A stretch of DNA of 39,456 nt from a virus, in the UHGV virus genome UHGV-0205415; one strand, written 5' to 3'. Below, piece after piece: positions 6,058 through 9,249 of this stretch (its first letter is position 1; the number at the start of each line of letters is the position of its first letter). The translations under genes were made by a program, and so were the position numbers. A model generated the notes under the pieces. It saw only the letters and a program-made list of their open reading frames with translations. It was not told the origin of the DNA and searched no databases.

Positions 6058-6189
6058 TTAATTTGCTCCAGATACAAGGAATGGCCGCAGCATGGCTACG
6101 GTTGGTATTTGTTGCATACCGAAACGGTACGATTGTTGATTTGTACAGTAGGTTTTACGATGCCATTCCACCCATTTGGTGAGGCATTG

Positions 6190-6447
6190 ATGATGTACAG
6201 CAAATACGATGAGGCGCAGTTCCACTTGAGGCTTACGCACGAGTTGCACGCTAAGATTAAGCAGCGTGCAAAAATGAATAACAGGTCTATCAATTCCGAA
6301 ATTGTGGCTACGATGGAAGAATCACTCTCCAAACCATCACCTGTAAGCGGGTATCGTGATGAAGAAGAGAGGCTGGCCTCATTAATCTCGGAACGAGTAA
6401 AAGAAGTTGCGGCTGATATCCTTAGAAAAGAAAAAACCCGCGATTAA
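6190..6447 (+). CDS. mnt: Mnt-like ribbon-helix-helix repressor
   Basis: Only the C-terminal 86 codons of track ORF 5794..6447; NNRSINSEIV and SKPSPVSGYR motifs match P22 Mnt (recalled); GGTGAGG RBS before ATG. Confidence 0.75.
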   Translation: MMYSKYDEAQFHLRLTHELHAKIKQRAKMNNRSINSEIVATMEESLSKPSPVSGYRDEEERLASLISERVKEVAADILRKEKTRD

Positions 6448-6456
6448 GCGGGTTTA
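6426..6456. terminator. bidirectional intrinsic terminator between convergent mnt-like gene and antirepressor operon
   Basis: A-run, CCCGC-gattaa-GCGGG hairpin, T-run; U-tract on minus strand directly follows the hairpin. Confidence 0.5.
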
Positions 6457-6461
6457 GTTGG

Positions 6462-6683
6462 TTAGTTATCAAAAAGTCCGTACGTTTCTTCTTCTTCAGG
6501 TGTAAGGGGAAGAATCTCTACTCTATCTATAGATACCTTTTCAATGTACCCATGAGGTCTACTTAAAATTAAAGCTCTCTCATGCCACAGAACTCCAAGA
6601 ATGTGATACCTCCCAGCATCGCCTTTTACCCTGGCTCTTCCTTTGATTCTTGGCGGCATAATGCCATATTTTTTCTTTGCCAT
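6462..6683 (-). CDS. hypothetical basic 73-aa protein, translationally coupled to upstream gene
   Basis: ATG overlaps upstream stop (TAATG); no family recognised. Confidence 0.4.
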   Translation of the reverse strand: MAKKKYGIMPPRIKGRARVKGDAGRYHILGVLWHERALILSRPHGYIEKVSIDRVEILPLTPEEEETYGLFDN

Positions 6684-7411
6684 TATGCAACATTACTCCC
6701 ATGAATCAGGTGTTGTAGTGCTTTAACACCTTCCGCATTGTAGCGGAATGCTTCCACCTGTTTGCTGGAATGCGCAGATTTATCCAGGAAGAACTTACCG
6801 TACTGCTCAGTTTTGAGGTTGTTTGCGTTAGCAATGCGACCAATCTTGTTGGCCGTTACTCCAAGCTGCTCTGCAACCTCCCCTGCTGAGTAGTAATGCT
6901 CTTCTATTGCTGGAAGAGGTATTGCATTAAAACCAACGATCGGGTTTATTATGCTTGCTGCCGCAGTCTGCTTTGCTTCCGGCGCAAGATTTGGCATCAA
7001 ATCGAACAGATTGGTAACAGCTTCAACCGTCATTTTCAATGTTCGCGCCTGGCGATACTCAACAAGTCCACTCGACGATTTACCGCTTTTAATGTGCGCT
7101 TCTTGCATACTTTCAAGTTGGTCTACAAGTGAGCGGCGAACAGCTTTAGATTCACGAGCAGCCACTCGAAGGGCTTGCTTAATTGACATAACAACTTTTT
7201 CAGAAGTTGTCTTGTTTGATTTTTGAACTACGAAAATTTCGTAGTGCTCACCTTCAAGTTCATCCTTAATGCGTGCAATAAAGTCGTTATTGCGGACTTC
7301 TTTTTCCCCGCACTGTCTACGAGCATGATTGACCATCTCTAACAGGTACTGGCTATCAATGGTTTTATCCGTGACAACGGATCCGATGTTTGCTACATTC
7401 TTAAAAGTCAT
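6683..7411 (-). CDS. Rha/antirepressor-family regulatory protein (tentative)
   Basis: ORF 6683..7462; ATG at 7411 with AAGGA RBS; domain resemblance to phage Rha/KilA-C antirepressors (recalled, moderate). Confidence 0.5.
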   Translation of the reverse strand: MTFKNVANIGSVVTDKTIDSQYLLEMVNHARRQCGEKEVRNNDFIARIKDELEGEHYEIFVVQKSNKTTSEKVVMSIKQALRVAARESKAVRRSLVDQLESMQEAHIKSGKSSSGLVEYRQARTLKMTVEAVTNLFDLMPNLAPEAKQTAAASIINPIVGFNAIPLPAIEEHYYSAGEVAEQLGVTANKIGRIANANNLKTEQYGKFFLDKSAHSSKQVEAFRYNAEGVKALQHLIHGSNVA

Positions 7412-7449
7412 TAGGCATTCCTTATGTGGTAGTAAGGGTGTGACATAGG

Positions 7450-7480
7450 CCGCCAGCAGCACACTGGCGGTTTTCTTTTT
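7450..7480 (+). terminator. plus-strand intrinsic terminator-like hairpin inside the minus-strand antirepressor operon
   Basis: CCGCCAG-cagcaca-CTGGCGG followed by TTTTCTTTTT. Confidence 0.3.
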
Positions 7481-7499
7481 GCGCCGTCCGGCGCACCAA

Positions 7500-8138
7500 T
7501 CAATGAATCCATTCCTCGCCGCGAAGTTTTGCCAGCATTGGCTGAGCGTTCTTTACGACAAAATTGTTGGTATCAAGATTCTTCATTTCACGAAGAAGTG
7601 ATTTCTTGGTTTCTTCTGACATGTAGCGAGTCTCATATGCAATATCGTAAATCCTTCCAGAAAGCTCAGAACCAATTTGCTTCATTCCTGGGTAGATGTG
7701 TTTGCACATTTGTTGACTCTTCTCCATCCACAATTGTAAGTAGCAGAGATTAACCAGCTCTTCGTCAGTAAACTGTTTTGCAATCGGTGAGCATTCTGCC
7801 TGCCGATCCAAAATATCCAGCACCCAGCGGCGGAACTCTTTGGCCTTGGGCGTAGAAGCAAACATCGCCACCAAGTGAGCGCCTCGGAGCGAGTAAACTC
7901 TGACCGATTTGTTACGTAAGCTATTGTTTATCCCGTTGACCTTCATATTGAGGGTCAATGACATTGAGTCGGAAAACTCGTCAGCATTACGGGCATAAAT
8001 TTGGCTGATGGCATCAGTTTTTTTATAGCCGAGAGCCTTAGCTAGTTCGGTGGAGGTAAACCAGATAGACCCACCCTCTGTTACAGGGTTAAAGGTGAAT
8101 CCTTGGAAGTTATAATCTGATTTTGCTACAATGTTCAT
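7500..8138 (-). CDS. ant: antirepressor with BRO-N-like domain
   Basis: ORF 7500..8222; ATG at 8138 with AAGGAAA RBS; BRO-N-like segment FTSTELAKALGY...VRVYSLRGAHLVAMF. Confidence 0.7.
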   Translation of the reverse strand: MNIVAKSDYNFQGFTFNPVTEGGSIWFTSTELAKALGYKKTDAISQIYARNADEFSDSMSLTLNMKVNGINNSLRNKSVRVYSLRGAHLVAMFASTPKAKEFRRWVLDILDRQAECSPIAKQFTDEELVNLCYLQLWMEKSQQMCKHIYPGMKQIGSELSGRIYDIAYETRYMSEETKKSLLREMKNLDTNNFVVKNAQPMLAKLRGEEWIH

Positions 8139-8214
8139 GTTAGTTTCCTTGCATACGGTTACTGACATAGAGGCCCGGTTTGTGTTCGCGCACTGCCGGG
8201 CTTCACTATTTTTA
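8123..8214 (+). ncRNA. candidate sar-like antisense RNA covering the ant ribosome-binding site
   Basis: Perfect TATAAT at 8111..8116 on plus strand inside ant 5' end; GCCCGG...CCGGGC hairpin plus T-run in arc-ant intergenic region; analogy to P22 sar RNA. Confidence 0.3.
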
Positions 8215-8385
8215 CTGGGCATTAACTCTTTCCTCTCTCAGGCTTTTAGCCAGTCGCTGCACAATCGCAGAGTTGATAGAAATTCCATCCATTTCAGCAA
8301 CACGTCTAATCTCCTCCTTCATTCGCGCTGGCAAACGAAGCTGGAAACTTTGACTTTTACGACCTGTGTAAAGCACATCTTTCAT
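8212..8385 (-). CDS. arc: Arc-like ribbon-helix-helix repressor
   Basis: ORF 8212..8412; ATG at 8385 with GGAGG RBS; FQLRLPARMKEEIRRVAE...ISINSAIVQRL resembles P22 Arc. Confidence 0.7.
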   Translation of the reverse strand: MKDVLYTGRKSQSFQLRLPARMKEEIRRVAEMDGISINSAIVQRLAKSLREERVNAQ

Positions 8386-8413
8386 AAGTAATCCCCTCCA
8401 CAATGATACCAAC

Positions 8414-8455
8414 TTGGTTCTAGAACCAATTTAACACCATTTATTTTGATGTCAA
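8414..8455 (-). promoter_or_regulatory. Pant-like promoter (-35 TTGACA, 16-nt spacer, -10 TAAATT) overlapped by 16-bp perfect palindrome TTGGTTCTAGAACCAA (operator candidate)
   Basis: Read directly from sequence; sits in divergent region between arc and the second mnt-like gene. Confidence 0.5.
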
Positions 8456-8497
8456 GTTGGTGCTATTGTTTAGCGAACATCTTTACGTTGAGGTCAT

Positions 8498-8881
8498 ATG
8501 AGCAAGTTCCCTAGTCATGAAATGGATAGGTTCAATATCAGGCTTCCGGCAGGAATGCGGGATGCTATAGCCTTAAGAGCAAAGGAAAACGGCAGATCAA
8601 TGAATACAGAACTAGTGTTTATCATTGATGATGCATTGAAGTCTCCGGTGCCTGCTGAGGTTGATAACTCCAGGATTATGAAGATTTACTCAAACCTCTC
8701 CGGGAACAGGCCATCAAACAAAGAAGAGTTTGAGCGGTGGGAGAATGAGCTAGTCAAAGCAATTTTCTACTTACTAGATAGCATCAGTTCTCATTCGCAA
8801 ATGTATCAAGCTCTCAGGAGCTTAAGGCAAGATGCATATAAAAATGTTTTTGGCGATGATGCTGAAGACATCCAGTTTTGA
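8498..8881 (+). CDS. second Mnt/Arc-family RHH repressor with extended C-terminus
   Basis: N-terminal RFNIRLPAGMRDAIALRAKENGRSMNTELV ribbon-helix-helix motif; divergent from arc as mnt is in P22. Confidence 0.6.
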   Translation: MSKFPSHEMDRFNIRLPAGMRDAIALRAKENGRSMNTELVFIIDDALKSPVPAEVDNSRIMKIYSNLSGNRPSNKEEFERWENELVKAIFYLLDSISSHSQMYQALRSLRQDAYKNVFGDDAEDIQF

Positions 8882-8925
8882 AGACCATTTCATCTGGTAT
8901 CCTGCGCAAAACTAAGGAGGTTGGT

Positions 8926-9249
8926 GTGTATACAACAGTTATCGTGATAGCTATCGCACTCATTGTGGTTCAGTACCAACTGGCATCTTTAAAACAAAAG
9001 ATATCTGACCTCAAGACTGAGAACGAAGCACTTAAAAACTCAATAAAAGATGAGAAGAACAAACTATCATTCACTATATCTGATATTGAGCAATCCATTG
9101 AAATTATTGAGAATAATATTAACAGACTAAAAAAAGAAGATATTCATGAAATCAATGACAATATCAAGGATTTGAAATCTTGGCTTAGGAATGTAGGACA
9201 AATCGCCACATCAACACGAGATAAGCTCAATCCATCCATGGATGATTAA
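8926..9249 (+). CDS. AT-rich gene encoding N-terminal transmembrane helix plus coiled-coil protein, in the position of P22 sieA
   Basis: ORF 8878..9249; GTG at 8926 five nt after AAGGAGG; hydrophobic VIVIAIALIVV then heptad-like charged repeats; markedly AT-rich. Confidence 0.5.
   Translation: MYTTVIVIAIALIVVQYQLASLKQKISDLKTENEALKNSIKDEKNKLSFTISDIEQSIEIIENNINRLKKEDIHEINDNIKDLKSWLRNVGQIATSTRDKLNPSMDD

Follow-up and report, generated by a model that had tools for sequence, protein, structure and literature searches.

Two juxtaposed modules of Mnt-like repressors and antirepressor-like genes: a likely reading of the immI-type locus in a P22-like prophage of Escherichia coli

Introduction

The immI region of phage P22 is a textbook case of layered lysogeny control by repressor, antirepressor and antisense RNA, and the P22 version is, to our knowledge, the only one to have been studied. 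Here we analyse the interval that occupies the same slot in the virus genome UHGV-0205415, a stretch of 39,456 nucleotides that we call the window and that is a P22-like (Lederbergvirus) prophage of Escherichia coli. The interval (6058–9249), which lies between the genes for the tailspike and for an ejection protein, encodes three ribbon-helix-helix (RHH) proteins, two of them Mnt-like and one an Arc homologue, together with two antirepressor-like proteins. We consider it likely, taking the arrangement together with the mechanism proposed below, that the locus consists of two juxtaposed modules that converge, tail against tail, on a terminator, and not of the two-layer anti-immunity circuit suggested in a preliminary description of this DNA.

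The slot between the tailspike gene and gene 16 was named the 'ant moron' by Villafane et al. (2008) and is the most variable part of the late operon, with ten types among sixteen genomes (PMC2629481). A full immI (mnt, arc, sar, ant) is found in P22 and epsilon34, while ST64T, ST104 and L carry mnt only (PMC2629481; PMC8022706). The 'orphan' mnt beside the tailspike gene has been an open question since the ST64T and L genomes appeared, and the phage L paper leaves two options for it, a new function or a remnant (PMC8022706).

Results and discussion

Gene content and prevalence

The interval is made up of the following modules and genes (values are E-values of profile matches).

6058–6447: module 2, an 'mnt-only' unit of a predicted Mnt orthologue, one candidate 17-bp operator and Pmnt, divergent from the tailspike gene
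6193–6447, plus strand: mnt85, a stand-alone gene encoding an RHH domain and a C-terminal oligomerisation helix; Pfam Arc (PF03869), 4e-15
6462–9249: module 1, an immI-type anti-immunity cassette of rhh127, Pant, arc57, sar1, antBRO, sar2, ant242, orf73 and terminator
6462–6683, minus strand: orf73, a small basic ORFan of 73 amino acids (aa); phrog_4977, with no assigned function
6683–7411, minus strand: ant242; PHROG 1726 'anti-repressor', 2e-100
7500–8138, minus strand: antBRO; Pfam Bro-N, 1.3e-10, and P22_AR_C, 2e-13; phrog_245 Ant, 4e-50
8212–8385, minus strand: arc57, the first gene of the ant operon; Pfam Arc, 9.3e-12
8498–8881, plus strand: rhh127, an RHH head with an unrelated 74-aa C-terminal domain; Pfam Arc, 1.1e-16; phrog_3178, 2.6e-59

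All of the open reading frames (ORFs) in the preliminary description, including that of the 73-aa basic protein, are present where it placed them, and all three RHH proteins match Pfam Arc (4e-15, 9e-12 and 1e-16). Its view of an expanded immI-like locus, with two Mnt-like RHH repressors, one Arc and two antirepressor-like genes, therefore holds; a further gene that it did not list, an hkcB-like gene at 8926–9249, is described below. We place the start of mnt85 most likely at the ATG at 6193, giving 84 aa, rather than at 6190, where the ORF had been begun, because homologues begin MYSKYD and RefSeq annotates 84 aa.

In E. coli MB06231, a prophage next to tRNA-Arg/yfdC matches the interval from end to end at 98.7% identity, and 6058–8218 shares 94.6% nucleotide identity with the isolated Escherichia phage JEP4 (MT740315). 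Of 5426 complete E. coli genomes, 615 have some part of the 3.2-kb interval and four contain at least 80% of it; the rhh127 block is found in 19 complete E. coli genomes and the mnt85 block, at 80% coverage or more, in 61. Three 'Arc family' genes are already annotated at this locus in many RefSeq records; 55989, MB06231 and MDR_56 are examples of strains that have it. Our literature search found no paper on this arrangement or its regulation; module 2, as a unit on its own, is already known from ST64T, L, ST160, Sf101 and Gally. The locus is thus an undescribed yet common variant of a well-known, fast-changing phage region.

A Mnt orthologue beside the tailspike gene

The mnt85 protein matches P22 Mnt (1mnt) with E = 3e-16 over aa 7–79, a span that takes in both the C-terminal oligomerisation helix and the SKPSPVxGYR linker, which had been picked out in the preliminary description and reads SKPSPVSGYR here. 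In contrast, rhh127 matches Mnt over its RHH part only (aa 10–53); it is indeed longer with a different C-terminus, as had been noted, and its 74-aa C-terminal extension gave no family match. The positional reading first given to the two genes is therefore inverted: rhh127, in the 'canonical' position divergent from arc, is non-orthologous to mnt, and the predicted full-length orthologue of P22 Mnt is the tailspike-adjacent mnt85.

Relatives of the 84-aa protein (65–100% identity) led us to 80 IMG/VR loci; here and below, locus samples are the best 80 matches of each IMG/VR scan and cluster phylogenetically. Of the 76 loci with enough flanking sequence, 75 have the mnt85 relative adjacent to, and divergent from, a tailspike N-terminus, and this adjacency spans identities of 65–100% for Mnt and 59–99% for the tailspike N-terminus. 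On the far side of mnt85, examined in 79 loci, ant242 and antBRO occur together in 46, ant242 alone in four, antBRO alone in three and neither in 26. The mnt85 ORF is intact in all 80 loci, and its DNA-binding half is under purifying selection, with a ratio of non-synonymous to synonymous substitution rates (dN/dS) of 0.01–0.06 at a dS of about 1, where synonymous sites are at or near saturation. Among isolated phages, Sf101 has the order gp16, mnt, tailspike, with neither arc nor ant; its mnt–tailspike junction recurs in ST64T, ST160 and Gally, and in VSe13 together with a truncated ant. The 'reduced second module' that the preliminary description had offered as an alternative to its circuit is supported by this comparison, as mnt divergent from the tailspike gene stands alone in ST64T, ST160, Gally and Sf101.

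Operator, promoter and tailspike spacer

Three elements bound or lie within module 2.

6115–6131, no strand: candidate mnt85 operator, a 17-bp imperfect palindrome, CATACCGAAACGGTACG, with core TACC-N5-GGTA
6133–6161, plus strand: candidate Pmnt85 (TTGTTG, 17 nt, TACGAT), directly next to the operator, just as Pmnt adjoins Omnt in P22
6434–6455, minus strand: terminator hairpin of the ant operon, the counterpart of P22 Tant, with an 8-bp stem followed by TTTCTTTT; the stem is shared with the mnt85 stop codon

Pmnt85 scores under the threshold of our promoter scan and is a putative assignment. Nevertheless, an alignment of 61 distinct mnt–tailspike spacers shows the same layout throughout, running from the tailspike side through a leader and one 17-bp palindrome to ATTG..(17 nt)..TA[CT]GAT. 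The palindrome is conserved in all 61 sequences, ATTG and TA[CT]GAT are invariant, and the tailspike leader is also common to the P22 ant–9 spacer. P22 Omnt and Pmnt are laid out identically, with AGGTCCACCGTGGACCT followed by ATTGAG...TATCAT. No second copy of the operator was found in the window (at up to three mismatches) or in 88 loci searched by regular expression; each locus holds exactly one, at the mnt85 promoter.

At this equivalent position the palindrome co-varies with the N-terminal recognition strand of Mnt, in what appear to be three specificity classes. The strand QFHLRL pairs with TACC-N5-GGTA in the window, Sf101, VSe13 and also IME10; QFNLRL pairs with (A)GACCAC-N-GTGGTC(T) (AAGACCAC-N-GTGGTCTT) in ST64T, ST160, Gally and loci L070/75/79/80; and HFNFRM pairs with GGTCCAC-C-GTGGACC (AGGTCCAC-C-GTGGACCT) in P22. 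Separately, a fourth Mnt-type class was seen at Pant, in P22-like placement, in IMG/VR loci with an arc57-family Arc (L149, L159), with the head MAR(N/T)DPVFNLRMP and the palindrome (A)CCCCAC-C/G-GTGGGG(T).

The spacer also allows the positional homologue of Pant to be followed. Where P22 has TTGACA/TATATT, this element on the opposite strand has decayed, and reads TCGGCA/TATATC in ST64T, TCGGCA/TGCATC in Gally, ATGGCA/TAAATA in Sf101 and ATGGCA/CAAATC in the window. The promoter scan found no leftward promoter between the operator and mnt85. Given this decay and the low dN/dS of mnt85, module 2 appears to be a Pant-less unit of Mnt, operator and Pmnt that is maintained by selection. The question left by phage L would thus be answered, for this clade, toward function: strong purifying selection and a co-varying operator imply that mnt85 must still do something.

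Two further structures were observed in the leaders on either side of the operator. The tailspike mRNA leader contains a conserved stem-loop (6085–6101, minus strand) about 28 nt upstream of the tailspike start codon, which is also present in the P22 ant–9 spacer and co-varies across loci (CCGCAGC-atg-GCTACGG, CCACAGC-aga-GCTGCGG, CACATC-gga-GATGCG). Without a T-run it is not a terminator, and it may be a processing or stability element. In the 5' leader of mnt85, a palindrome at 6168–6184 (CCACC-CATTT-GGTGAGG) overlaps the Shine–Dalgarno sequence; the pairing is retained with other sequences in ST64T (CCACTT-acaa-AAGTGAGG) and P22 (CACT-aacttgg-AGTG), which suggests either a hairpin occluding the ribosome-binding site (RBS) or a second binding site that limits Mnt synthesis.

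The terminator hairpin at which the modules meet had been called bidirectional. It is clear on the minus strand, for the ant operon, but on the plus strand the tail after the hairpin is only TTTAGTTGG, a weak T-run.

The Pant region and its regulators

Upstream of arc57, whose product shares 42% identity with P22 Arc along its entire length, a promoter scan and a repeat search delimited the following elements.

8400–8469, no strand: the Pant/P(rhh127) control region
8455–8428, minus strand: Pant, TTGACA-16-TAAATT
8414–8429: a perfect 16-bp palindrome, TTGGTTCTAGAACCAA
8400–8416 and 8453–8469: distal inverted arms
8459–8467: a possible extended -10 for rhh127, TGCTATTGT

A link between the regulator's head and its Pant region was seen in 13 distinct loci. 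Wherever the arc-upstream region is of the window's type, the divergent regulator begins MSKFPSHEMDRFNIRLPAGMRDAIA, and its C-terminal domain is of the 127-aa form or of a coiled-coil form of 106 aa. The head ERFTVRMP pairs with a second intergenic type (ATGACATCA..TGATGTCAT), although the Arc found there is 95% identical and has the same SQSFQLRLP strand. The same linkage is seen in 80 further loci found by way of Arc, where heads of the form ..EMDRFN[IV]RLP.. always accompany TTGGT-box regions and other heads accompany other repeats. Regulators with the ..EMDRFN[IV]RLP.. head have at least eight different C-terminal extensions and total lengths of 88–142 aa (window 8657–8881; loci L092–L171), which suggests that the oligomerisation part is shuffled as a domain while head and operator stay fixed. 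Neither a QFHLRL head nor a TACC operator was found beside arc among the 80 arc57-family loci or the isolated phages, a non-exhaustive sample. Judged by this co-variation, rhh127 is the predicted cognate maintenance repressor of this Pant and the equivalent there of Mnt.

JEP4 offers a natural exchange at this point: it replaces arc, operator and left regulator as one block, and keeps mnt85, orf73, ant242 and antBRO. Its replacement block (6151–7065 of locus L001) encodes, in the Mnt position, a 189-aa repressor with helix-turn-helix HTH_3 and Peptidase_S24 domains (CI/LexA-like) and, in the arc position, a ParD-like RHH protein. The S24 repressor is potentially RecA-cleavable, which would link antirepressor expression directly to the SOS response.

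We also tried to assign operators to Arc and to rhh127 by comparing intergenic types that have Arc in common. Two shared 8-mers emerged, ACACCATT and TGATGTCA; they differ in position relative to Pant, the second overlaps the Pant -35, and the comparison yielded no assignment.

Candidate antisense RNAs

Promoter and terminator scans revealed two plus-strand promoter-like sites with TG-extended -10 elements, each within the first codons of an ant gene and each followed by a hairpin and T-run.

8103–8212, plus strand: sar1, promoter TTGGAA-18-TACAAT with TG; predicted RNA from 8139 to about 8210, across the antBRO RBS
7371–7480, plus strand: sar2, promoter GTGACA-17-TACATT with TG; predicted RNA from about 7406 to 7480; terminator at 7447–7473 followed by TCTTTTT

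The sar1 element is positionally identical to Psar/sar of P22 (P22 AAATTGCTATACTATTCATGTTGG, window ATTTTGCTACAATGTTCATGTTAG) and folds, like P22 sar, into two hairpins (-33.3 kcal/mol, z -5.7, against -29.5 kcal/mol, z -4.7, for P22). It can be aligned with the sar of P22 and epsilon34, with 24 invariant columns, and its terminator, at the arc stop, has a stem with compensatory changes. Fifty-three loci give 22 distinct sequences, and every one of these retains the element, across antBRO variants as low as 40% in identity. A weak symR-like match at 8136–8207 (E = 0.77) was set aside as the sar1 element itself, not SymR.

The sar2 element spans the start codon and Shine–Dalgarno sequence of ant242. 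Its -35, the -10 TGCTA[C/A/T]A[T]T and the terminator CCGCCAG...CTGGCGG-T-run are retained in 20 of 20 distinct sequences, down to 42% protein identity. The ant242 codons at the -10 are GTA, TTA and ATA (Val, Leu and Ile), a usage that we read as selection on nucleotides rather than on protein. A covariance model built from sar1 and the sar of P22 and epsilon34 matched the window at 8139–8212 only and did not find sar2; sar2 would thus be analogous, not homologous, to sar. Upstream of the ant242 homologue of a Stx2a (Shiga toxin 2a) phage we noted a possible TG -10 without a convincing terminator, and we do not claim a sar2-like element there.

Elsewhere in the window, a plus-strand hairpin and T-run at 33104–33167 overlaps the 3' end of cII (33125–33403, minus strand), matching the position and orientation of the lambda OOP antisense RNA against cII; it scores 14.6 bits (E = 0.18) with the sar-derived model and matches no Rfam family over threshold.

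Antirepressor-like proteins and orf73

Both domains of antBRO score above gathering (Bro-N 42.2 bits, cut-off 25.6; P22_AR_C 50.7 bits, cut-off 22.4), which bears out its earlier description as a BRO-N antirepressor at the level of profiles. Only the C-terminal domain is shared with P22 Ant (29% identity over 69 aa), and Bro-N stands in place of P22_AR_N. The Ant protein of Phi24B, which has the P22 Ant C-terminal domain in common with antBRO, has been shown experimentally to promote efficient induction (PMC3064807).

For ant242 the earlier label 'Rha-type' has to be dropped, as Phage_pRha was matched neither in Pfam (limit E 10) nor in NCBIfam; nor did ANT or KilAC of Pfam match. Its designation as an antirepressor stands in part, through PHROG 1726 and a fold-level similarity to proteins annotated as KilAC or antirepressor. 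An AlphaFold model (pLDDT 72, pTM 0.35) has an alpha/beta domain at the N-terminus, then a helical middle part, and a winged helix-turn-helix at the C-terminus. When the model was compared with BFVD, Foldseek ranked proteins labelled antirepressor, KilAC and KilA highest (E 1e-9 to 1e-7, probability 1.0); the uncertain packing of its domains keeps the TM-scores low (0.3). The C-terminal domain most resembles the DNA-binding winged helices of MerR, Par and Xis. Nearly all of the 2102 homologues are called 'hypothetical', and among the 120 listed none has a precomputed Pfam domain; those of Stx2a phages (63–67% identity) lie amid other antirepressor genes. An antirepressor role for ant242 is plausible, if unproven.

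The start codon of orf73 overlaps the ant242 stop codon (TAATG), and the two genes are translationally coupled. Among 5.8 billion proteins orf73 has eight clusters, with identities of 80% or more throughout, and so small and uniform a set does not allow a useful profile or structure. It is present in 29 and absent from 21 ant242-bearing loci, as a clean indel between otherwise identical cassettes.

Comparison with known systems

The locus resembles P22 immI in its slot, between homologues of gene 16 (ejection) and gene 9 (tailspike) inside the late operon, and in much of its architecture: an RHH maintenance repressor, with candidate binding sites, divergent from a Pant that drives arc and then ant; an Arc homologue first in the operon; a predicted sar homologue with matching promoter type, position and two-hairpin fold; an antirepressor with the P22 Ant C-terminal domain; a terminator before the tailspike gene; and a full-length Mnt orthologue with SKPSPVxGYR. 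It differs in that the regulator at Pant is not the Mnt orthologue but rhh127, with another C-terminal domain and other operators, while the Mnt orthologue lies outside the cassette, beside the tailspike gene, with a single operator of its own. There are two antirepressor-like genes instead of one, antBRO having Bro-N and not P22_AR_N and ant242 being unrelated to P22 Ant, and there are also a second, non-homologous antisense RNA, an extra ORFan and a sar1 beyond the reach of RF00262, the Rfam sar model.

Module 2, with a spacer of roughly 135 bp, is like the 'mnt-only' ant morons of ST64T, ST104, L, ST160, SE1, Gally and Sf101, in which mnt is divergent from the tailspike gene across an intergenic region of 121–146 bp, and the spacer holds the tailspike leader, one 17-bp palindrome and Pmnt beside a decayed Pant remnant. 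The QFHLRL head and TACC operator are those of Sf101 and IME10, whereas ST64T, L, ST160 and Gally fall into another specificity class (QFNLRL, GACCAC-N-GTGGTC). Unlike these morons, which are without arc and ant, the window has arc57, antBRO and ant242 beyond the mnt terminator. JEP4 has mnt85, orf73, ant242 and antBRO in the same order, with both antisense-RNA elements conserved, but its arc/operator/left-regulator block is a replacement (ParD-like RHH; HTH_3 and Peptidase_S24). The literature searched holds no functional study of the JEP4 region; the phage has been published only as a component of a phage cocktail.

Module 1 also has relatives elsewhere. In Stx2a_F451 an ant242 homologue (67% identity) stands in a row with other antirepressor genes, although in Phi24B and Stx2a phages these genes lie near int/xis, in the early-left region and not in the late operon, without Arc/Mnt-type control. 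Modules of the arc57 family with RHH regulator, Arc and Ant (e.g. Salmonella phage vB_SosS_Oslo) share an Arc that is 81–100% identical, the ..EMDRFN[IV]RLP.. head and the TTGGT-box layout of Pant, but are found on other backbones (45–55-kb contigs), with other regulator C-termini and without an adjacent Mnt85 unit.

Proposed mechanism and alternatives

We propose that in the lysogen a promoter directly divergent from Pant would express rhh127, along with the hkcB-like membrane protein, and that rhh127 would keep Pant shut. Upon infection, or on loss of rhh127, Pant would fire and Arc, antBRO, ant242 and orf73 would be made, after which Arc would shut Pant again. Meanwhile sar1 and sar2, as cis-antisense RNAs, would restrict translation of antBRO and ant242: each is predicted to start within the first codons of its ant gene, cross the RBS and end at its own terminator. 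The antirepressors would bind and inactivate CI/C2-type repressors, probably with different target ranges for antBRO and ant242; the prophage's own repressor, at 33813–34529, is of CI type (HTH_3 and Peptidase_S24). Mnt85 would bind the single 17-bp operator directly upstream of its own promoter, which would make it autoregulatory; it would formerly have controlled the now-decayed Pant and would leave the ant operon of module 1 alone. More tentatively, the tailspike-adjacent Mnt may be an autonomous repressor–operator pair that has outlived Pant and been re-specified at least three times for a new job, either trans-acting immunity against superinfecting phages with a cognate operator at their antirepressor promoter or the gating of transcription into the tailspike gene, next to two antirepressors each throttled by an independently evolved cis-antisense RNA; we hold this fuller version to be possible, and not yet probable.

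Would Mnt85 instead act on the ant operon as a second lock, through weak or non-palindromic sites or through convergent transcription, so that both Mnt-like repressors form the two layers originally suggested? The gene is convergent with the ant operon and keeps company with ant242 and antBRO in 46 of 79 loci. In one variant its transcript would leak past the hairpin at 6434–6455, with its weak plus-strand T-run, continue antisense across orf73 and ant242 and end at the strong plus-strand terminator at 7447–7473. However, copies of the cognate operator are confined to the promoter of mnt85 itself and absent from Pant, whose region co-varies with the head of a different regulator, rhh127; mnt85 is equally conserved in the 26 loci, and in several isolated phages, that lack any ant gene; and in JEP4 the Pant block has been swapped while mnt85 is unchanged. 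We regard such a second lock as improbable. Gating of the tailspike gene strikes us as slightly less so, though still unlikely. Bound 58 bp upstream of the tailspike start, Mnt85 could be a roadblock to read-through, whether this comes from the ant operon or from further promoters upstream, or repress a weak leftward promoter, and so silence the tailspike in lysogens or tune its late level: the operator lies on the sole path of late transcription into that gene, the adjacency of mnt and tailspike is invariant over wide divergence, the tailspike leader has its co-varying hairpin, and the P22 literature suggests that the ant moron and its repressors influence tailspike levels (PMC2629481). Yet the Pant homologue is decayed and no leftward promoter was detected, which tells against the role at a tailspike promoter first proposed for this module; adjacency could also follow from descent from a single arc–ant deletion, or from an arc–ant insertion in P22, and bound repressors should not stop late RNA polymerase once it is antiterminated. 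That Mnt85 is a functionless relic of a degraded immI, one of the two possibilities raised for phage L (PMC8022706), we find very hard to credit. Its partner Pant has decayed, and mnt expression was undetectable in a lysogen of Kapi1, a different P22-like phage whose locus was not matched to this one (PMC12922286). A relic would hardly be expected to retain an intact ORF in 80 of 80 loci, a dN/dS of 0.01–0.06 in the DNA-binding half with synonymous sites near saturation, and an operator palindrome and promoter that are conserved and co-vary with the recognition strand.

A more serious doubt concerns ant242, and bears on module 1 as we read it. The protein could be a DNA-binding regulator or have another early function of KilA/Roi/KilAC-like kind, leaving antBRO as the sole antirepressor and ant242–orf73 as a passenger operon with antisense control of its own. 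It matches no antirepressor family (in Pfam, at a limit of E 10, HTH_31 alone appears, at E = 0.12; NCBIfam and PDB searches gave no match) and has no sequence relation to P22 Ant; its C-terminus is nearest to DNA-binding winged helices, as a transcription factor's might be; annotations of its homologues vary between KilA, Roi, antirepressor and hypothetical; and some loci, as well as other types of phage, have it but not antBRO. The PHROG label, the antirepressor or KilAC annotation of its nearest viral structural neighbours, its place in an Arc-controlled operon beneath a sar-like antisense RNA, as for P22 ant, and its company in Stx2a phages all point the other way, and a role other than antirepression seems to us a real but minor possibility.

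Further points weigh against the two-module reading and its mechanism. The operators, the promoters and both small RNAs are predictions, and DNA binding at the named sites, transcription of sar1 and sar2 and antirepressor activity, that of ant242 above all, are what we infer from sequence. Sites for Arc and for rhh127 within 8400–8469 were inseparable by intergenic comparison. The sar2 fold is only marginally better than shuffled sequences (z -1.9), and, with a terminator stem that hardly varies, it shows weak covariation. The Rfam sar model RF00262 (gathering 43 bits) has no match in 5500–9800 at E up to 10, or in the whole window at its gathering score, and no Rfam family exceeded threshold in the region or the whole window. 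Since the same model scores P22 sar at 97.8 bits, we take sar1, a candidate RNA, to be a diverged sar homologue outside the curated family. Finally, because the sampled loci are clustered, the finding that mnt and tailspike are always adjacent may partly reflect common descent.

Flanking genes

The genes on either side of the regulatory region are those of a P22-like late operon, with one addition next to rhh127.

4060–6057, minus strand: tailspike gene; Pfam Head_binding, 3.5e-67 (P22-type N-terminus), and Peptidase_S74, 4.5e-10 (C-terminal chaperone domain)
8926–9249, plus strand: hkcB-like gene, downstream of and co-directional with rhh127, encoding an N-terminal transmembrane segment and a coiled coil; phrog_5962, 6.8e-59
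9250–11361: gene for the gp16-type DNA transfer/ejection protein, in the downstream flank; phrog_770, 1e-216

Besides the P22 head-binding domain and the C-terminal Peptidase_S74 intramolecular chaperone, the tailspike has a weak endosialidase-like match, which suggests that its receptor-binding part is capsule- or polysaccharide-degrading and unlike that of P22. The hkcB-like gene shares 99.7% nucleotide identity with epsilon34 gene 14, an hkcB homologue, and RefSeq also starts it at 8926. It lies on the strand expressed in the prophage, in the slot that holds sieA in P22, and its product may serve in superinfection exclusion or another lysogenic conversion.

Implications

Antirepressors are able to induce unrelated co-resident prophages, and the cassette may therefore matter for cross-talk between prophages, including the Stx phages that carry ant242 homologues. 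Of complete E. coli genomes, roughly 1% or more have the two-antirepressor cassette. The three combinations of Mnt head with operator that occur naturally (HFNFR/GTCC, QFNLR/GACC and QFHLR/TACC) would provide a ready specificity series for the recognition of DNA by RHH proteins. More broadly, the locus shows how immI is being rebuilt in common E. coli prophages: the DNA-reading head of the repressor and its operator appear to form a swappable block, and a second, unrelated antirepressor-like gene has, as predicted here, acquired a sar-like antisense RNA of its own.

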